Notes under the pieces: generated by a model | Told to the model about the DNA's origin: nothing | Databases searched by the model: none | What the model saw: only the letters and a program-made list of their open reading frames with translations | Translations under genes and position numbers: made by a program | From: Escherichia coli | GTDB lineage: Bacteria > Pseudomonadota > Gammaproteobacteria > Enterobacterales > Enterobacteriaceae | DNA: 64,000 bases | Assembly: GCF_030013595.1 (NCBI RefSeq) | Contig: NZ_CP122768.1 | Strand: one strand, 5' to 3' | Part shown: positions 907 to 46,190 of the stretch, piece after piece | How the letters are laid out: each line of letters opens with the position of its first letter | How positions within the stretch are numbered: position 1 is the first letter of the stretch

Positions 907-1328
907 TTCCTAGAACGACATTTTAAGTCAACAACTTACCGCGCCATCTCTGCGCTCACACGTCCCACTACCTCAAAACATGTAAAGCCTTGCAAGCCAT
1001 TGTGAGGCCTTATGTGTCTCAGTTTTGTCCCTCTTTTTTGTACCAAAAAACATAGCAATTGAGGATAAACCTCATGCTATTTTCGCTTATATGCCTCTAA
1101 AGGCATGGCGCTTAAATAGATAAAAACACCACAAAAGCATAAAAAACCACACAGTAAAACCGCAACATAAAACAATAACAGATAATTAAACCAAAAACAG
1201 ATAGCGCATTGTGATAATCATTCAATACTAAACAAAATATAAACAGTGGAGCAATATGTAATTGACTCATTAAGTTAGATATAAAAAATACATATTCAAT
1301 CATTAAAACGATTGAATGGAGAACTTTT

Positions 1329-2282
1329 ATGCGGGCGAAACTTCTGGGAATAGTCCTGACAACCCCTATTGCGATCAGCTCTTTTGCTTCTACCGAGACT
1401 TTATCGTTTACTCCTGACAACATAAATGCGGACATTAGTCTTGGAACTCTGAGCGGAAAAACAAAAGAGCGTGTTTATCTAGCCGAAGAAGGAGGCCGAA
1501 AAGTCAGTCAACTCGACTGGAAATTCAATAACGCTGCAATTATTAAAGGTGCAATTAATTGGGATTTGATGCCCCAGATATCTATCGGGGCTGCTGGCTG
1601 GACAACTCTCGGCAGCCGAGGTGGCAATATGGTCGATCAGGACTGGATGGATTCCAGTAACCCCGGAACCTGGACGGATGAAAGTAGACACCCTGATACA
1701 CAACTCAATTATGCCAACGAATTTGATCTGAATATCAAAGGCTGGCTCCTCAACGAACCCAATTACCGCCTGGGACTCATGGCCGGATATCAGGAAAGCC
1801 GTTATAGCTTTACAGCCAGAGGTGGTTCCTATATCTACAGTTCTGAGGAGGGATTCAGAGATGATATCGGCTCCTTCCCGAATGGAGAAAGAGCAATCGG
1901 CTACAAACAACGTTTTAAAATGCCCTACATTGGCTTGACTGGAAGTTATCGTTATGAAGATTTTGAGCTAGGTGGCACATTTAAATACAGCGGCTGGGTG
2001 GAAGCATCTGATAACGATGAGCACTATGACCCAGGAAAAAGAATCACTTATCGCAGTAAAGTCAAAGACCAAAATTACTATTCTGTTGCAGTCAATGCAG
2101 GTTATTACGTAACACCTAACGCAAAAGTTTATGTTGAAGGCGCATGGAATCGGGTTACGAATAAAAAAGGTAATACTTCACTTTATGATCACAATGATAA
2201 CACTTCAGACTACAGCAAAAATGGTGCAGGCATAGAAAACTATAACTTCATCACTACTGCTGGTCTTAAGTACACCTTTTAA
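1329..2282 (+). CDS. ompT: Outer membrane protease OmpT (omptin)
   Basis: 317-aa ORF with signal peptide and beta-barrel omptin sequence recognised from memory; prophage cargo as in DLP12. Confidence 0.9.
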   Translation: MRAKLLGIVLTTPIAISSFASTETLSFTPDNINADISLGTLSGKTKERVYLAEEGGRKVSQLDWKFNNAAIIKGAINWDLMPQISIGAAGWTTLGSRGGNMVDQDWMDSSNPGTWTDESRHPDTQLNYANEFDLNIKGWLLNEPNYRLGLMAGYQESRYSFTARGGSYIYSSEEGFRDDIGSFPNGERAIGYKQRFKMPYIGLTGSYRYEDFELGGTFKYSGWVEASDNDEHYDPGKRITYRSKVKDQNYYSVAVNAGYYVTPNAKVYVEGAWNRVTNKKGNTSLYDHNDNTSDYSKNGAGIENYNFITTAGLKYTF

Positions 2283-2301
2283 CGAAGTTAACCAGATTTT
2301 C

Positions 2302-2338
2302 TCCCCGGTGGTATTGTATAACCCCGGGGAATTTGTTT
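2302..2338 (+). terminator. Putative intrinsic terminator after ompT
   Basis: Hairpin tccccgg(14-nt loop)ccgggga followed by a T-rich tract atttgttt. Confidence 0.45.
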
Positions 2339-2468
2339 ACAGTTACAAGTAGACAATATCCACTAATTTTGTAAGCATTTAACCTATGTCATAACGTGTA
2401 ATCTCTTACCGCAACACAAGACCTCAATATATTCAAATTTTATCTTTATTCCGATATTCAGAGACACA

Positions 2469-3953
2469 ATGCGAAAAATAATTACTCATTTCAAAGTTGT
2501 TTTAACGTTACTTCTACCAGTAACCGTATCTGCCCAGCAGATACAGTGGCAATCCTGTATGGCCAGTCAATTCAACCACTGGTTTGGTGAGGAAAAACCG
2601 TCTCCTGACTTACTATGTGGTTATTTGTCTGTTCCATTAAAATATACAGACACAGGCGGAGATGCTTCTTATGAAAAAAAATCACAAGTCAAACTAGCGT
2701 TGACAAAATTGCCGGCAAAAAGCAAGCATAAAGGAAGTATCCTGATAATAAGTGGTGGTCCCGGGTTACCAGGCATAAATCCTTATATTAACTTTGACTG
2801 GCCAGTCACAAATCTTCGTGAGTCATGGGATATTATTGGATTTGATCCTCGAGGCGTCGGACAGTCCACTCCGACAATAAACTGCCGGCAATCAGATACA
2901 GAGACTCAGGAAAACATAACCGAAAAGCAACAAGTATTAAATAAAATTAATGCCTGTATCCATAATACCGGAGCCGAAGTCATTCGCCATATCGGCTCTA
3001 ACGAGGCTGTATACGATATTGATCGTATTAGGCAAGCCTTGGGGGATAAACAACTGACAGCCGTGGCGTATTCGTATGGAACTCAAATTGCAGCCTTATA
3101 TGCAGAACGTTTTCCCTACAACGTAAGATCTATCGTTCTTGATGGAGTCGTCGATATCGATGACCTGGAGGACAACTTCACATGGCAACTCAAACAGGCA
3201 CAGAGTTATCAGGAAACGTTTGATCGCTTTGCATCCTGGTGTGCGCGTACAAAAAGTTGCCCGCTTTCTTCAGACAGAGATAAGGCAATAACTCACTTCC
3301 ATGAGCTATTATCAAAATTACATCACAAACCTTTATTAGACAGTAAGGGAGAAAATATATCTTCAGGTGAACTCATATCATTAACAACAGACCTTCTGCT
3401 ATGGCGTTCATCATGGCCAACCCTTGCAACTGCCATACGCCAGTTCTCTCAGGGGATTGTCAGTAATGAAATTGAAACTGCGCTCAGTGCTCCGATAGCC
3501 TCAGAAGAGTCAAGCGATGCTTCGGGGGTAATCCTCTGTGTAGATCAGGGGGATGAGCAATTAACACCAGAAGAGCGAAAATCCCGAAAAGACGCTCTTG
3601 CGAATGCCTTCCCGGCTATTAACTTTGACAATGGACGTTCCGATTCACCTGATTTTTGTGAATTATGGCCAATACATAGCGACCTGAACAAAACTCGCCT
3701 GAAAAATACTGTTCTGCCCTCTGGTTTACTGTTTGTAGCACACAAATACGACCCAACAACGCCCTGGATTAATGCCCGTAAGATGGCAGAGAAATTTTCC
3801 AGCCCGTTACTAACAATAAATGGTGATGGGCATACATTAGCTCTCACCGGAGTTAATTTATGTGTAGATAAAGCAGTTGTACATCACCTGATCACTCCAC
3901 AAAAAATAGAAAATATATACTGCCCAGGAAATTCTGAAGCAGAAATACAATAA
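2469..3953 (+). CDS. Secreted alpha/beta-hydrolase fold peptidase (S33 / TAP-like)
   Basis: 494-aa ORF; N-terminal signal peptide; GGPG oxyanion-hole motif (ISGGPGLPG); Ser nucleophile motif AYSYG; occupies the position where K-12 DLP12 has appY. Confidence 0.7.
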   Translation: MRKIITHFKVVLTLLLPVTVSAQQIQWQSCMASQFNHWFGEEKPSPDLLCGYLSVPLKYTDTGGDASYEKKSQVKLALTKLPAKSKHKGSILIISGGPGLPGINPYINFDWPVTNLRESWDIIGFDPRGVGQSTPTINCRQSDTETQENITEKQQVLNKINACIHNTGAEVIRHIGSNEAVYDIDRIRQALGDKQLTAVAYSYGTQIAALYAERFPYNVRSIVLDGVVDIDDLEDNFTWQLKQAQSYQETFDRFASWCARTKSCPLSSDRDKAITHFHELLSKLHHKPLLDSKGENISSGELISLTTDLLLWRSSWPTLATAIRQFSQGIVSNEIETALSAPIASEESSDASGVILCVDQGDEQLTPEERKSRKDALANAFPAINFDNGRSDSPDFCELWPIHSDLNKTRLKNTVLPSGLLFVAHKYDPTTPWINARKMAEKFSSPLLTINGDGHTLALTGVNLCVDKAVVHHLITPQKIENIYCPGNSEAEIQ

Positions 3954-3973
3954 TTTCAAAATATTCCGCTATT

Positions 3974-4015
3974 TGCTCCCAATGCAAAACATATATTGCA
4001 TTGGGAGCATATTCA
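3974..4015 (+). terminator. Intrinsic terminator (perfect 14-bp stem)
   Basis: tgctcccaatgcaa / ttgcattgggagca inverted repeat with 8-nt loop, followed by a T-rich tract. Confidence 0.6.
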
Positions 4016-4136
4016 TATTTTTGTTATTCTTGTATGAAATCGTCTCATGTACACGGTCCTTTTTTCGCCGAAAACTGATATTACTTTAATCAAAAGTTGA
4101 CGTGCCAGATTCGAAGTAAATTTATAAAATATCAAA

Positions 4137-4442
4137 TCAATATACATTTTGCACCTTCGAGATAGTAATGGCTGTTACTGTAACATGGGTTACAAACAGC
4201 TTCATACCCAGAGCTACTGATGTATCAACACGATTCAACAATACCCGATATTTATTCCATGCCTCCAGCAACGATCTTTCTTCCTCCGTTGCGATTTCCA
4301 GATCTACAGCATCCTGCAGTGGCGCAATATACTCACTGAATTCCTGGATGTAGAACTGTGTGGTGACGGTCTTCCAGCCATTCGGCTCCTGCTGTATCGA
4401 AGCATACCAGGCTATTTCAATATCGCTATGCTGCGGCAGCAT
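4137..4442 (-). pseudogene. Tail fiber assembly gene remnant (tfaX-like)
   Basis: 101-aa ORF whose N-terminal ~40 aa aligns with the C-terminal region of the Tfa at 5222-5806 (APLQDAxDLEIATE..[18 protein letters not shown]) and then diverges. Confidence 0.6.
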
Positions 4443-4498: not shown

Positions 4499-5167
4499 AT
4501 GGTGAAATTAATGAAAAAAAACACAGATGATGGGGCTAAAATTTACACACCACTTACCCTAAAGCTTTATGACTGGTGGGTTTTGGGAGTATCAAATCGG
4601 CTTGCATGGGGATGTCCTACAAAGGAACACCTTCTTCCACACTTTCTGGAACATTTAGGTAACAACCATCTGGATATTGGTGTTGGAACTGGGTTTTACC
4701 TTACTCACGTACCTGAGAGTAGTCTGATATCTTTAATGGATTTGAACGAAGCTAGCCTGAACGCGGCATCTACAAGGGCTGGGGAATCAAAAATTAAACA
4801 TAAAATTAGCCATGATGTTTTTGAACCTTATCCCGCGGCGTTACATGGTCAATTTGATTCCATTTCCATGTTTTACCTTCTTCACTGCCTGCCTGGAAAT
4901 ATATCTACAAAAAGCTGTGTAATACGCAATGCGGCGCAGGCCTTAACTGACGATGGAACTCTATACGGAGCCACAATTCTTGGCGATGGAGTTGTGCACA
5001 ATAGCTTCGGTCAAAAACTGATGCGCATTTACAATCAGAAAGGCATCTTTTCAAACACAAAAGATTCCGAAGAAGGCTTAACACATATACTCTCAGAGCA
5101 TTTCGAGAATGTTAAAACCAAGGTTCAAGGTACTGTAGTAATGTTTTCCGCTTCAGGGAAAAAATAG
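4499..5167 (+). CDS. Class I SAM-dependent methyltransferase (YbcY-like)
   Basis: 222-aa ORF with the glycine-rich SAM-binding motif DIGVGTG; same position as ybcY between tfa copies in DLP12. Confidence 0.7.
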   Translation: MVKLMKKNTDDGAKIYTPLTLKLYDWWVLGVSNRLAWGCPTKEHLLPHFLEHLGNNHLDIGVGTGFYLTHVPESSLISLMDLNEASLNAASTRAGESKIKHKISHDVFEPYPAALHGQFDSISMFYLLHCLPGNISTKSCVIRNAAQALTDDGTLYGATILGDGVVHNSFGQKLMRIYNQKGIFSNTKDSEEGLTHILSEHFENVKTKVQGTVVMFSASGKK

Positions 5168-5221
5168 CATCCAACCGCAGCACGTTCTTGCTTAAGACGT
5201 GCTGCGGCATAATCCCAATGA

Positions 5222-5806
5222 TTACTCCCTGACAGGGTTCGTAGGCCACTCAATATCAGGTGCAGTTGATGTATCAACACGGTTCAGCAACACCCGATAC
5301 TTTTTCCAGGCTTCCAGCAACGAGGTTTCTCCCTCCGTTGCGATTTCCAGATCTGCAGCATCCTGAAGTGGCGCAATATGCTCACTGGCTACCTGCATCA
5401 GGCTGTTTTTTGTTTCTTCCGCCTCCCGGATCCGGAACAGTTTTTCTGCTTCTGCATCTTTCACCCAGGTTGTGCCGTTCCACTTCTGAAACTCCCCTTC
5501 CGGGGATAACCAGGTGACATTTTCCGGTAATGAGCCGAGTTCAGAAATAAATAACGCGTCGCCGGAAGCCACGTCATAGACGGTTTTACCCCGATGGTCT
5601 TCAACGAGATGCCACGATGCCTCATCACTGTTGAAAACAGCCACAAAGCCAGCCGGAATATCTGGCGGTGCAATATCGGTACTGTTTGCTGGCAGACCTG
5701 TATGAGGCGGAATATATGCGTCACCTTCACCAATAAATTCATTAGTTCCGGCCAGCAGATTATAAATTTTTATGGTCCGTGGTTGTTCACTCATTCTGAA
5801 TGCCAT
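5222..5806 (-). CDS. tfa: Tail fiber assembly protein Tfa
   Basis: 194-aa ORF immediately downstream of stf; lambda Tfa-like sequence. Confidence 0.85.
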
Positions 5807-8800
5807 TATGCAAGCCTCACAATATAGTTAAATGCGATGTTTTTGACGGTGTTTTCCGCGTTACCAGCAGCGTTAACGGTGATGGTGTGTCCATGTGAGC
5901 CAATCGCAACCGAGTGCGTATGAGCACCAATACCGACAGTATGTGCGTGTGCACCTGCGCTTGCAGCAGTGCCGGACAGTGAGTGGGTATGTGCGCCAGC
6001 AGATGATGTTGCATAGTTTTGATTATGCACAACAGACAATCTTGTTGATGCACTACCAGCACCGGAGTTAGCACTAGCCGTGTTCACGTTGGCTAGTGAG
6101 TGTGTGTGTGCTCCAGCCGAGTTTGTAGAGCCGCTCACACTGTGTGTATGTGCCCCGGTGTTATTCGTAGATTTAGTGCCGTAATCAAACGACGATGTGG
6201 TTTTCGTACCCAAATCCGTACTTGATGCGCTGGCGCTGTGGGTGTGCGATTTAATGCCGTCCTGTTCCTGAGACAATACGGCACGACCACTGGCGGGCTT
6301 GCCCTTAATCGTCCAGCCACGCATATCAGGGATCACGCCTGACGGATAAGCAACTGCAAGTTTCGGGTATGCAGATTTGTCAAAAGTCTGCCCCTGCATC
6401 AGGGCATAACCAGACGGAACGGTATCTGATGGCCACGGAATTGGTGCGCCAACTGGGTAGCTTTCTGGTGGAAGATTTTTCGAGGTATAAACTTCTGCCC
6501 AGCCTTCCTCAAAACCATAGCCATCTCTTGAGGAACGGTAGAACAGACCTCCATTTCTGTAATGCGCCTTCATCTGCAGGGTCCGGCAACTTCCGACTCC
6601 GGTATAGAAGTTAACCAGAATATAGCTGTCGCCAGAGCGGGTGACATTGTAAGCGCCTGATTCGGCATTCCAGGGAACGCCACCATCCGCATCGGCATAT
6701 GTATCCGTTGCCCTTCTGGCAAAAGCAGCCACATGCGCGGCGGTTAAAGTAATATCTTTTGAACCATCAAACTCAACCCCAGAAACCAGTCTTGGCGTTT
6801 GCAGCTTTGTTGCTGTCAATGCGTTACCGTTCAGACTTGCAGACAGTTTGGTTCCAATAACCAGTTCGCCGGTTGCGTTATCAATAGCAAACGGTCTTAA
6901 TGTATTCCAGCCACCATAAACATCACCTTGATTGGTAAGCAGCAGGTAAGTTTTAGCGCCATCATTACGCCATAATGCCCCATACTCCCCACCTATCATT
7001 CGAATCTGATTACCACCACGCGCTACAATTTCGTCTGTGGCAAAAAGTTTTTTGCACGACAAGTTATCGTTAACGATTAACGAATGGGACTCATAAAAAC
7101 CACGCCCACTCTTAAAATCAAGGATAACGTCCGCCGCGATACATTCAGTCGCTGGAATTGTTGCCCCAAACTTATAGGTCGTATCATTAACAACGAGATC
7201 AGCACCAGGTGCGGATATTGACAGGCCATCTTCGATAAACGCAAAAACAGGGAAAGCAGCGCCATCAACATAGAACACAGAGCGCAAATCATCGCCCTTA
7301 TTACTCATCATTATTGAGTGGATGGCTCGTTCATTGTTTTGATATTGCCAGAACATTCCATAAGCATAACGCCCCCTGTCAGTCCAGCCACCAGGCATAA
7401 CAAATCCGTTAAACTCGCAGTTATTCATCGGATCGCCTGCGGTTCGCGTTGCCGTGGTGATAATGACCCTTGATGCCAGTTCGCTTACTGAGCCAGCAGA
7501 ACGCATAACAACAACAGGGTAATATTTTCCAGATGTTGCACCTGCAGGAGCGTTAACCCGCACATAACGCATACCACGCTTATCAGCAAAGTCTGTTTTA
7601 CTGACCGCGTTAATGTTGTTCAGGAAGCGTCCCTTATCGGGTATATCAGCGCCGTTCTGGTCTTTCTGCAGACGTTTCTCTGCATTGTCATAGGCTGATT
7701 TTACTGACTTTGGCGTTGCCGCCAGCGTTTCAGACGTACTGTTGGTCGCACTGCTGAGCTGTACTATCCCCTTTTTCGTCGTACTTGCATCCTCAAGCGC
7801 CACGGCGGATGCAATATCCTCTGCCCGTTTAGCTGCTGTCTCGGCGCGCGTTGCCGCGGATTCCGCCGTACTTTTGCTCTGTGCTGCCGCTGTCGCACTG
7901 CCAGCAGCCTCTGTCGCCTTCGTGGATGCCGTCGTGGCGCTGCCCTTCGCTGCTGACGCCTGTCTGGTCGCCTCATCTTTTGAAGCAGACGCAGATGATG
8001 CCGATGACGCCGCCGAACTGGCGGACGATGCCGCTGCCGTTTTTGAGGATTCTGCGCTGGTTTCCGACGCTTTCGCGTTCGTTTCGGATGTCTTCGCTGC
8101 GGATGCAGACCTCGCTGCTGCGCTGGCCTGTTCAGCGGCTTCGCCAGCCTTCGTTGTGGCTGTTGAAGCGGACAATGCAGCGCTTTCTGCCGATTTTCCG
8201 GCGGCGGTGGCACTGGCTGAGGCCTGCCCGGCACTTGTTGACGCTGCACTGGCAGACGACGCAGCCGCTGTTTTTGAGCCTGCCGCAGCTGAGGCGCTCT
8301 GTCCCGCTGCCGTTTCAGAAGACCTGGCGTTCGTCTCGGACGTTTTTGCCGCCTTCGCGGAATTTCCTGCCGCCGTTGCCGAGGAAGCTGCACTACTGGC
8401 GCTCGAGGCTGCGCTCGTTTCTGATGATTTTGCAGCCTCTTTTGAGGCCGCCGCATCCCGGGCCGAGGTCGCAGCTTCTGATGCCTTCGTGGTCGCGGTG
8501 GATGCAGATGTGGCTGCTGATTGTTGTGACGCTGAAGCATTCGTTTCTGACGTTTTCGCCGCACCGGCACTGGTGGCCGCCGCGCTTTTTGAGGACTCTG
8601 CAGCGGCAGCACTTTTTGATGCTTCAGTGGCCTTTGTTGATGCCGTTCCTGCGCTGGAAGACGCTGACTGAGCCGACGAAGCGGCCTGTCCGGCTGACGT
8701 GCTGGCTGCGCGTGCTGAGCCTGCAGCATCAGTCGCATGGGTTGCCGCCTCACGGGCAGATGTGCCGGCATCGCCGGCTGACTTCTTCGCGGCTGCCGTG

Positions 8801-9165
8801 TTCTGTGCCACCACGGACGCGTTACGCGCCACCTCTTCCACCATCAGCTCAAAACGGCGCAGTGCCTCCGGACGGGCATCATCCTCCGTCATGGCACCGA
8901 GAAAATCATTCAGCGTACCGGGTCGGGAATCTTCATACACTGTGATAGTCCCGGCATGTGACGGCGGGAATCCTTCCACCAACAGAATAACGCTGTACTG
9001 ACCGTACTCAACGTCCATACTGTAACGCCCGGCTTCATCCGGATTTTCTGAGGCCAGCGTGTTCACCACCACCGTGGTGCTGTTACGTTTTGCTTTCAGC
9101 TGGATTGTGCAGTTCTGTACCGGTTTTCCTGTGCCGTCTTTCAGTACACCTGAAATCTTTACTGC
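5806..9165 (-). CDS. stf: Side tail fiber protein Stf
   Basis: ~1120-aa ORF; lambda Stf-like N-terminus ([12 protein letters not shown]); long Ala/Ser/Thr-rich repeat region; C-terminal GAHTHS histidine repeats. Confidence 0.85.
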
Positions 9166-9178
9166 CATATTCACCCCA

Positions 9179-44708: not shown

Positions 44709-45079
44709 TGGAGCCATACAGCCTCACACTCGATGAGGCCTGTCAGTTTCTTAAGATATCCAGACCAACCGCCACCAACTGGATACGAACAGGCCGCCTA
44801 CAGGCAACACGTAAAGATCCAACCAAGCCAAAATCTCCTTACCTCACAACACGGCAAGCTTGCATTGCGGCGCTTCAGTCTCCGCTGCATACTGTCCAGG
44901 TGAGCGCGGGTGATGGCATAACAGAGGAAAGAAAATGTCACTCTTCCGCAGAAATGAAATATGGTATGCCTCGTATTCGCTCCCGGGCGGGAAACGAATT
45001 AAGGAATCTCTTGGCACAAAGGACAAGCGGCAAGCTCAGGAGTTGCACGACAAGCGAAAAGCAGAACTCTGGCGAGTAG
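44708..45079 (+). CDS. xis: Putative excisionase (Xis)
   Basis: ATG at 44708 overlapping the upstream stop (TAATG); N-terminal HTH-like region ([31 protein letters not shown]); overlaps the int start out of frame; the 3' end is uncertain. Confidence 0.5.
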
Positions 45080-46098
45080 AAAAGCTAGGGGATTTACCTG
45101 ATGTCACTTTTGAAGAGGCCTGCCTAAGATGGCTTGAGGAAAAAGCTGATAAAAAATCTCTCGATTCAGATAAAAGCCGGATTGAGTTCTGGCTTGAACA
45201 TTTTGAGGGTATAAGGCTTAAAGATATCTCGGAGGCAAAGATTTACTCTGCTGTAAGCAGAATGCATAACAGAAAGACGAAAGAAATATGGAAACAGAAA
45301 GTTCAGGCCGCCATCAGGAAAGGTAAAGAACCGCCTGTTTATGAACCAAAGCCAGTATCAACTCAGACAAAGGCAAAGCATCTTGCCATGATAAAGGCCA
45401 TTCTCCGTGCTGCAGAACGCGACTGGAAGTGGCTGGAAAAAGCGCCTGTCATCAAGATACCAGCGGTCAGAAACAAGCGAGTCAGATGGCTGGAAAAGGA
45501 GGAAGCAAAACGCCTTATTGATGAGTGCCCCGAACCACTGAAATCTGTCGTCAAGTTTGCGCTGGCAACTGGTCTGAGAAAGTCGAACATCATAAATCTG
45601 GAATGGCAACAAATCGACATGCAGCGACGAGTTGCCTGGGTGAATCCAGAAGAGAGCAAATCAAACCGCGCCATTGGTGTGGCGCTGAACGATACCGCCT
45701 GTAAAGTGTTGCGTGATCAAATAGGCAAGCATCACAAATGGGTGTTTGTACATACCAAGGCGGCTAAGCGAGCAGATGGAACATCAACGCCTGCGGTCAG
45801 GAAGATGCGCATCGACAGCAAGACATCATGGCTATCAGCTTGTCGTCGTGCAGGAATTGAAGATTTCCGTTTCCATGACCTCAGACACACCTGGGCAAGC
45901 TGGCTGATCCAGTCAGGCGTCCCATTATCTGTGCTTCAGGAAATGGGCGGATGGGAGTCCATAGAAATGGTTCGTAGGTATGCTCACCTTGCGCCTAATC
46001 ATTTGACAGAGCATGCAAGGAAAATAGACGACATTTTTGGTGATAATGTCCCAAATATGTCCCACTGTGGAATTATGGAGGATATAAAGAAGGCGTAA
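44935..46098 (+). CDS. int: Tyrosine integrase (DLP12 IntD type)
   Basis: 387 aa; C-terminal catalytic region with HDLRHT..Y; ends 16 bp from argU. Confidence 0.9.
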
Positions 46099-46113: not shown

Positions 46114-46190
46114 TGGCGCGCCCTGCAGGATTCGAACCTGCGGCCCACGACTTAGAAGGTCGTTGCTCTATCCAACTGAGCTAAGGGCGC
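46114..46190 (-). tRNA. argU: tRNA-Arg (UCU) argU
   Basis: Reverse complement gcgcccttagctcagttggatagagcaacgaccttctaagtcgtgggccgcaggttcgaatcctgcagggcgcgcca is a cloverleaf with anticodon TCT and terminal CCA. Confidence 0.9.

Follow-up and report, generated by a model that had tools for sequence, protein, structure and literature searches.

The prophage end within a 64,000-nucleotide stretch of Escherichia coli DNA (contig NZ_CP122768.1, hereafter the window, whose coordinates are used throughout) raises the question of what is encoded by the gene directly downstream of ompT, and whether its position beside this omptin protease is of any significance. The initial annotation, made from the sequence alone, had placed next to ompT an open reading frame (ORF) of 494 amino acids (aa) with a signal peptide and the motifs GGPG and AYSYG, and both genes were found as noted. 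The second ORF proved to be a real and common gene. It adds a member to the Hip1/TAP family, in a setting new to that family: an omptin cassette carried by phages and plasmids. Our preferred reading, to which we give about an even chance, is that it encodes a periplasmic Hip1/TAP-type serine hydrolase (hereafter the hydrolase) and stands second, after the omptin gene, in a mobile omptin-hydrolase cassette, which is phage cargo in this window. The features of the pair are as follows.

1329-2282, plus strand: ompT, omptin outer-membrane protease, intact, 317 aa
2302-2330, plus strand: GC-rich hairpin after ompT (fold z -2.6), present in five cassette lineages
2469-3953, plus strand: Hip1/TAP-like alpha/beta-hydrolase, 494-aa precursor (Pfam, Hip1 match, AlphaFold2, Foldseek)
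2469-2534, plus strand: predicted Sec signal peptide, residues 1-22, cleavage between VSA and QQ (sequence features)
2754-2765, plus strand: predicted GGPG oxyanion-hole loop, residues 96-99 (conservation; equivalent of Hip1 Gly110)
3072-3074, plus strand: codon of Ser202, predicted nucleophile in AYSYG, invariant, aligned with Hip1 Ser228
3750-3752, plus strand: codon of Asp428, predicted catalytic acid in DPTTP, invariant, aligned with Hip1 Asp463 (DPATP)
3831-3833, plus strand: codon of His455, predicted catalytic base in GDGHT, invariant, aligned with Hip1 His490
3974-4009, plus strand: predicted intrinsic terminator behind the hydrolase, with a 14-bp stem and then a T-run (terminator scan; fold)

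The hydrolase belongs to the Hip1/TAP family

Two Pfam domains were recognised in the 494-aa protein, Abhydrolase_1 (PF00561, 8e-32) over residues 91-460 and the TAP-like C-terminal domain Abhydrolase_4 (PF08386, 6e-14) over residues 386-479. The protein carries the motifs GGPG (96-99), AYSYG (200-204), DPTTP (at 428) and GDGH (452-455), and its nucleophile elbow follows the pattern small-x-Ser-x-small, with Ala, not Gly, as the first residue. Conservation was assessed by aligning 80 homologues with identities as low as 25%. In this alignment S202, D428, H455 and P98 of the GGPG loop are invariant, G96, G97 and G99 are nearly so, and ten cysteines are invariant or near-invariant. Among solved structures the best sequence match was Hip1 (Rv2224c, CaeA) of Mycobacterium tuberculosis, over the full length and with an E-value of 5e-51 (177 bits), and the YSYGT, DPxTP and HT motifs of Hip1 line up with the hydrolase. 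The AlphaFold2 model obtained with the same alignment (predicted local distance difference test score 92, predicted template-modelling score 0.92) contains helices at about residues 230-410 between the core strands, forming a large helical lid. Its best Foldseek matches in the Protein Data Bank (PDB) were Hip1 entries, with template-modelling (TM) scores of 0.76-0.81, followed by TnmK1/K2. Judged by sequence and modelled fold, the 494-aa protein is an alpha/beta-hydrolase of the TAP/Hip1 branch (MEROPS S33-type) with a predicted complete catalytic apparatus. The S33/TAP-like assignment of the initial annotation is thereby upheld, and the catalytic triad is intact on alignment.

Hip1 is a cell-envelope, immunomodulatory protease of M. 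tuberculosis, first named carboxylesterase A. Its triad is S228/D463/H490, and it carries an export signal and has five predicted disulfides. Its activity as a serine protease is proven: it cleaves GroEL2 and hydrolyses azocasein, tripeptide-p-nitroanilide and p-nitrophenyl butyrate (PMC4022732). Its oxyanion hole is formed by a GGPG glycine (backbone NH of Gly110) and the residue after the serine (PMC13041806). The hydrolase resembles Hip1 in its full-length homology, the fold with a helical lid, the Ser/Asp/His order, the GGPG loop and the N-terminal export signal, and also in its cysteines: about 10-11 are present, and the ten conserved in the hydrolase parallel the five predicted disulfides of Hip1. 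The two proteins differ in sequence (about 26-27% identity in the Foldseek structural alignment) and in setting, the host of Hip1 being mycobacterial, whereas the hydrolase is found in a Gram-negative bacterium, on phages and plasmids and beside an omptin. Transfer of the substrate specificity of Hip1 (P2 Lys, P1 Leu/Gln) was considered and rejected, because the lid is different and conservation in the pocket is only partial; V254, Q267 and T466 of the Hip1 pocket are retained in the hydrolase.

By analogy, the hydrolase is slightly more probably a peptidase than only an esterase, since its closest characterised relatives, Hip1 and the Streptomyces enzymes TPP A, B and C, are peptidases (PMC4022732). 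The latter, Tap (TPP A), SlpD (TPP B) and SlpE (TPP C), founded the TAP family (PF08386) and share with the hydrolase the TAP-like domain and Abhydrolase_1; they are exported serine peptidases that have been compared with Hip1 (PMC4022732) and are likened to the hydrolase here by description only. The mode of the hydrolase, amino- or endopeptidase, is not readable from its sequence. Ester hydrolysis is conceivable as well, given that Hip1 hydrolyses both esters and peptides. A different view is that the hydrolase is an exported esterase, lipase or lactonase acting on ester-linked envelope or gut substrates (lipids, acylated or lactone compounds), unrelated to the substrates of OmpT. Alpha/beta-hydrolases with such a triad commonly hydrolyse esters; the earlier name of Hip1 and its cleavage of p-nitrophenyl butyrate (PMC4022732) point the same way, and the S2 residues with which Hip1 binds peptides are not conserved in the hydrolase. 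Database names for the gene are generic ('alpha/beta hydrolase', PHROG 'unknown function'), one phage record says 'putative lactone hydrolase', and JGI calls homologues 'pimeloyl-ACP methyl ester carboxylesterase'. Such names are automatic, however, and the only NCBIfam similarities of the hydrolase are to prolyl aminopeptidases. Set beside the peptidase activity of the closest relatives, this makes a role confined to esters unlikely, although far from negligible.

Membership in the prolyl aminopeptidase family itself (TIGR01249) was rejected, as the match reached 35.8 bits against a cut-off of 259.75 and covered only residues 167-263. The likeness to these enzymes (S33.001), which are cytoplasmic and about 315 aa long, is local, around the nucleophile elbow, and the PDB entries 1qtr and 1azw gave E-values of about 1e-3; in fold, prolyl aminopeptidases match the model poorly (TM 0.33-0.35). 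Literature searches by locus tag (Z1930) and by gene context found no paper on the hydrolase.

A match to the PADLOC profile PDLC01094 ('TAP-like protein', a candidate defence system; E 3e-55) is compatible with another proposal, a phage defence or superinfection-exclusion factor that alters the envelope against other phages, and the location of the gene in the lambda b-region, typical for accessory and exclusion genes, would also fit. But with 186 bits, no better than the 177 bits of Hip1, the PADLOC match can be read only as family membership. In addition, partner genes of such a system were not seen, and the cassette is also carried by conjugative plasmids beside fimbrial and autotransporter genes. 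A defence role is accordingly rated as quite improbable.

Signal peptide and translation start

The N-terminus of the precursor, MRKIITHFKVVLTLLLPVTVSA followed by QQ, combines basic residues, a hydrophobic core (Kyte-Doolittle values up to 2.8) and a V-S-A cleavage motif, and the predicted cleavage falls three to four residues before the conserved W27 and C30. The same motif, VSA followed after the cleavage point by Q or R and then Q, also stands at the N-terminus of both diverged paralogues inspected there, and the mature N-terminus of Hip1 aligns from about residue 24 of the hydrolase. From these sequence features and the Hip1 alignment, the N-terminus is predicted to be a Sec/signal peptidase I (SPase-I) signal. 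The mature protein was computed to have 472 aa, a mass of 52.5 kDa and a pI of 5.5. In E. coli a signal of the Sec/SPase-I type predicts a periplasmic location and no more, so that the word 'secreted' in the initial annotation was an overstatement. Most likely, the hydrolase would be exported by Sec and fold in the periplasm, stabilised by five disulfides.

The signal of Hip1 is of type II (lipoprotein), whereas that of the hydrolase is of the SPase-I type without a lipobox. A lipoprotein was considered here too and rejected, as no lipobox precedes Cys30, a cysteine conserved within the domain and located three residues past W27. The record of phage 2G7b starts the hydrolase at Met31 (464 aa; 7091-8485) and so loses the signal peptide together with W27 and C30, and the profile of PHROG phrog_20134 also begins at residue 31. 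Both the conservation of C30 and the signal peptides of the paralogues speak for the 494-aa start.

The omptin-hydrolase pair on phages, plasmids and chromosomes

The hydrolase gene starts 186 bp downstream of ompT on the same strand. A protein at least 99% identical is encoded in 11 Escherichia phage records, and isolated phages that carry the gene include 2G7b, ev243, Turner and PhiR26_1 to PhiR49_1. The gene order is int, ompT, hydrolase, tfa in phage 2G7b and ompT, hydrolase, tfa in PhiR26_1, the int end of which lies beyond the stretch examined. A 60-80% identical copy is encoded in 168 plasmid records. On pECC-1470_100 it lies 92 nt after ompP in the same direction, and the full ompP-hydrolase junction was present in 155 of the 185 plasmids that matched the junction query; among the partial matches listed, it is ompP that is missing and not the hydrolase. 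Plasmid copies that have diverged to 76-82% identity stand behind ompP or another omptin, and those at 82%, 81% and 78% identity each have a 315-aa omptin in front. The two-gene cargo module proposed initially is thus better founded than had been claimed, the pair being present in five diverged phage and plasmid lineages.

Genome counts were made on 5426 complete E. coli genomes. The hydrolase was found in 1249 of them (23%), mostly at 99% identity or more, and at least 80% of the gene was present in 1225 of these. Carriers include O157:H7 EDL933 and strains labelled O145 and O111:H8. The ompT gene was present in about 3083 genomes, of which 1233 had the ompT-hydrolase junction, 831 an ompT-appY junction and the rest neither, so that the hydrolase lies directly downstream in about 40% of the ompT-positive genomes and about 60% have ompT without it. 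The ompT-hydrolase arrangement is the commonest one downstream of ompT in complete E. coli genomes, and not an unusual feature of a single prophage. The hydrolase gene is accessory, not a common core gene of known function. A clear asymmetry was observed, ompT being often kept alone and the hydrolase almost never found without an omptin. In EDL933 the ompT-hydrolase block (window 1216-4219; locus 4861-7485) is detached from its prophage context, with copies of IS1203 on its upstream side, ISEc8 on its downstream side, and envY present only as a fragment.

Five lineages with the same gene order and strand were compared. Identity between them is 76-90% for the hydrolase and 71-89% for the omptin, the ratio of nonsynonymous (dN) to synonymous (dS) divergence is 0.12-0.23 for the hydrolase and 0.07-0.27 for the omptin, and dS reaches about 1-2.6 (about 1.1 in the hydrolase and about 2.6 in the omptin). 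The low dN/dS ratio indicates that the hydrolase is under purifying selection. Between the two genes, dN is correlated (r = 0.94). A decaying, non-functional remnant might be suspected from the tail-fibre-assembly pseudogene fragments adjoining the gene and from its loss in the K-12-type allele and in that of uropathogenic and avian pathogenic E. coli (UPEC/APEC), but this is already contradicted by the selection analysis, with dN/dS values that low over a dS of about 1. In addition, the gene is largely complete and little diverged in nearly all carrier genomes, the catalytic and cysteine positions are all intact, and viable phages carry it. Decay is hence considered most improbable.

The plasmid form of the pair has probably been met before. 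In a genome-wide association study on host, the gene 'caeA' (NDEABJGN_03560) was cattle-associated by k-mer and pan-genome tests (PMC10088187 Table S2); it adjoins ompP (NDEABJGN_03561), which was cattle-associated together with it, and the text of the paper discusses only ompP (PMC10088187). This 'caeA' is very likely the ompP-linked plasmid paralogue of the hydrolase, since the Prokka name is derived from Hip1/Rv2224c, and the association is a weak contextual hint in favour of our preferred reading. Likewise, Desloges et al. described the same three ompT contexts that are found here and named the gene 186 bp downstream of ompT 'ymcE' (PMC6854850). As this spacing is identical to that of the window, the 'ymcE' label is probably a misannotation of the hydrolase gene.

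Expression signals around the pair

The terminator behind the hydrolase (3974-4009) was found by the terminator scan and has a dG of -24.4 kcal/mol (z -5.9). The hairpin behind ompT (2302-2330) is weaker, the T-run that follows it is interrupted (AATTTGTTTA), and the scan missed it because its loop is longer than 8 nt. A CCCCGG...CCGGGG hairpin after the omptin stop was present in all five lineages, with compensatory changes in two of its nine predicted pairs, and it is a probable weak or leaky terminator. Of the separate terminators that the initial annotation had given to the two genes, the one of the hydrolase was borne out, while that of ompT is probably the less effective structure just described.

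No sigma-70 match of at least 9/12 was found in the spacer 2283-2468 by the promoter scan, the best candidate recognised by eye being TTACCG-16-TATATT (8/12). In three lineages only 92 nt separate the omptin from the hydrolase, and inspection of these spacers by eye, without a scan, revealed no sigma-70 match. Such short-spacer lineages seem to have no room for an independent promoter. The expression of the hydrolase may depend on the ompT promoter, and its transcription, at least in part, by read-through from the omptin promoter past the leaky hairpin is a finely balanced proposal. A spacer block at 2400-2420 (CTTACCGCAACACAAGAC) is common to the window lineage and the plasmid lineage of 82% identity (4930-4950) but is lacking in the 92-nt spacers; a regulatory site or promoter element is conceivable here.

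Cooperation or co-inheritance

One important question is whether the pairing with ompT reflects anything other than mere co-inheritance of an ancestral 3-kb block, the genes of which would have separate selected functions and would not cooperate. With a spacer of 92-188 nt recombination rarely splits the two genes, and the tightly correlated divergence is what would be expected for a block inherited in one piece. The ompT-positive genomes that keep ompT without the hydrolase (about 60%) and the homologues of about 53% identity that have no omptin neighbour are also in favour of this explanation. On the other hand, the hydrolase is almost never without an omptin (the junction accounts for 1233 of the 1249 genomes that have the hydrolase at all), and the sole inspected plasmid copy without an intact omptin, that of pCys-11, is a 95% identical hydrolase preceded by an IS2-truncated omptin. 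The pair has outlasted a synonymous divergence of about one per site or more in very different mobile contexts with both ORFs intact, and the short-spacer lineages seem to leave no space for a promoter of the hydrolase's own. Co-inheritance alone is therefore a serious contender, falling a little short of even probability.

Several further observations weigh against our preferred reading, that of a periplasmic serine hydrolase in a mobile cassette with an omptin. No omptin neighbour was present beside the homologues of about 50-54% identity (Salmonella and Serratia plasmids, a Budvicia chromosome and a metagenomic contig) or beside those on Serratia, Pseudomonas and Providencia chromosomes; the former indicate that the enzyme needs no omptin in general. 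The adjacency over a spacer of 92-188 nt could persist by descent alone, and OmpT works without the hydrolase in K-12 and UPEC. The family includes esterases and even non-hydrolytic enzymes, and TnmK1/K2 are the next-best folds. The Hip1 pocket is only partly kept, with R232 replaced by Q206 and K469 by I434, and the S2 residues Tyr342 and Tyr372 of Hip1 fall in the differing lid and are neither alignable nor conserved in the hydrolase. Enzymatic, expression or localisation data for the hydrolase or its gammaproteobacterial relatives were not found in the literature.

Among the distant homologues, the chromosomal one of Serratia marcescens (45% identity; cluster of 837 sequences; locus 5001-8356) is followed on the same strand by a gene for a 539-aa SBP_bac_5 (family-5 oligopeptide/dipeptide-binding) protein. 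This peptide-binding neighbour is a weak hint at peptide substrates.

If the two proteins of the cassette cooperate, OmpT would cut cationic peptides at the surface and the periplasmic peptidase would handle the fragments. That the hydrolase acts in the envelope on peptides or proteins, perhaps finishing OmpT fragments of host cationic peptides, is put forward only as a tentative and rather unlikely proposal, and the action on host or antimicrobial peptides suggested in the initial annotation is likewise speculative. The working model in which surface OmpT is followed by a periplasmic peptidase on the fragments fits the asymmetry between an omptin that is often alone and a hydrolase that almost always has an omptin beside it; even so, we hold it to be rather doubtful. 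In its widest form the proposal is a mobile two-tier proteolysis, in which a periplasmic peptidase, co-transcribed by read-through, would finish or specifically process the products of the omptin or else, like Hip1, cleave a separate target in the envelope or the host. The pair would then be a host-adaptation determinant spread by lambda-like phages (with ompT; in Shiga toxin-producing E. coli and others) and by IncF plasmids (with ompP; associated with cattle), a possibility that we think unlikely when taken as a whole.

A partly comparable mobile locus of E. coli is arlABC (PI-6, on plasmids of adherent-invasive E. coli and UPEC), which likewise combines an omptin (ArlC) with accessory genes and has been linked to resistance against host defence peptides (PMC5053483; PMC6854850). 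Its gene set differs from that of the omptin-hydrolase cassette. The idea that ArlB might be the hydrolase was rejected, since ArlB is given in the literature as an NAD-dependent epimerase (PMC5053483).

Whether or not the omptin and the hydrolase cooperate, the gene is of interest, as a Hip1 homologue lies directly downstream in about 40% of the ompT-positive genomes and the same pair is carried by the cattle-associated ompP plasmids. If the enzymes cooperate, the peptide resistance and host association credited to the omptin alone may miss a partner. Without cooperation, there would still be in pathogenic E. coli a widespread enzyme with predicted export that is transmitted by phages.

OmpT is a well-studied virulence-associated protease and also a nuisance in biotechnology. 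The ompT product of the window matched NCBIfam NF008222 over its full length with 708 bits (cut-off 537) and has D83, D85, D210 and H212, which we take to be the catalytic residues of OmpT (numbering from the OmpT structure). Differences in OmpT activity among enterohaemorrhagic, enteropathogenic and uropathogenic E. coli have been tied to the genomic context (PMC6854850).

Prophage context and the exchange with K-12

The features that surround the pair are listed below.

55-816: envY (ORF list)
862-906: distal 45-bp att core, 3' end of argU, exact repeat of 46114-46158; prophage boundary beside ompT
2287-4212, plus strand: segment of 1926 bp standing in for the K-12 appY segment and comprising the ompT hairpin, the spacer and the hydrolase gene with its terminator (blastn breakpoints)
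4137-4442, minus strand: tail-fibre-assembly (tfaX-like) remnant (ORF list; partial tfa pseudogene in E. coli 2012EL-2448)
4499-5167, plus strand: ybcY-like methyltransferase (ORF list)
5222-5806, minus strand: tfa (ORF list)
5806-9174, minus strand: side tail fibre, 1122 aa (ORF list)
44935-46098, plus strand: prophage integrase, 387 aa, at the argU-proximal (attL) end (ORF; integrase in the near-identical PhiR29_1)
46114-46190, minus strand: tRNA-Arg(tct) argU, the integration site, holding the proximal att core 46114-46158 (ARAGORN)

The annotation of the identical chromosome region of E. coli 2012EL-2448 agrees with this layout and names the 494-aa ORF 'alpha/beta hydrolase'. The 45-bp direct repeat at 862-906 and 46114-46158 delimits a lambda-like prophage of about 45 kb at argU that spans approximately 862-46158, and the two att cores enclose ompT and the hydrolase. 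Window 25801-46158 showed 99.5% identity over 100% of its length to the isolated phages PhiR29_1 and PhiR29_2, and window 862-25800 about 97% identity over 90-94% to PhiR30_1, PhiR26_1 and PhiR29. The prophage is full-length and intact, not a remnant, and matches isolated phages.

Both genes are placed at the tail-fibre end of the prophage, far from int and between tfa and the att core. Since it is the end far from int, the att beside ompT is attR by the lambda convention and not attL, as it had been called in the initial annotation. The K-12 annotation also counts ompT within DLP12, the right boundary of which corresponds to window 907. As they are enclosed by the att cores, lie outside the structural and replication modules and occur in viable phages, ompT and the hydrolase fit lysogenic-conversion (moron-type) cargo. 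The cassette, omptin and then hydrolase, would thus be lysogenic-conversion cargo between the tail-fibre genes and attP/attR, the same niche, from tail-fibre genes to attR, as that of the conversion genes of the lambda b-region and late region (lom, bor).

The appY/ompT end of DLP12 has the same argU site and the same flanks. Homology to K-12 ends 4 nt past the ompT stop (2286) and resumes at 4213, in the tfa remnant (blastn), so that window 2287-4212 takes the place of a 1572-bp K-12 segment holding appY, and the replacement of appY noted initially is confirmed. In DLP12 the regulator gene appY is convergent with ompT, whereas here the hydrolase gene is co-directional with it. A third allele is that of APEC E956 (UPEC/APEC-type), in which 157 bp past ompT are kept, including the hairpin, and are followed by the region upstream of ybcY. 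Exactly window 2440-4412 is absent, that is, the hydrolase, its terminator and the tfa remnant, and in the APEC E956 locus (5303-5547) the two blastn matches share 12 bp. This tentatively suggests that the UPEC/APEC allele arose by deletion from the hydrolase-bearing form rather than the latter by insertion.

Other genes of the window

The 222-aa ybcY-like protein (4499-5167), a class I SAM-dependent methyltransferase, is encoded by an intact gene between two tail-fibre-assembly genes of the opposite strand. In K-12 ybcY is a pseudogene, while it is conserved in isolated phages; the protein falls under PHROG 2132 (unknown function), and NCBIfam gave no match. Within the side tail-fibre ORF, the region 7750-9000 has a GC content of 0.60-0.63 and an AT skew of -0.36 to -0.43. 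It codes for a long, low-complexity part of the fibre rich in Ala, Ser and Thr, and spurious long ORFs are present in its other frames.

A 107-aa ORF at 1112-1435 on the minus strand overlaps the ompT promoter region and the 5' end of ompT. It is AT-rich (GC 0.36), is missing from the RefSeq feature table of the identical region and is probably spurious. According to the annotation of PhiR29_1, window 25801-46158 contains an OmpD/NmpC-type porin gene, another envelope-related cargo, and a Lom-family gene is located nearby in E. coli 2012EL-2448.

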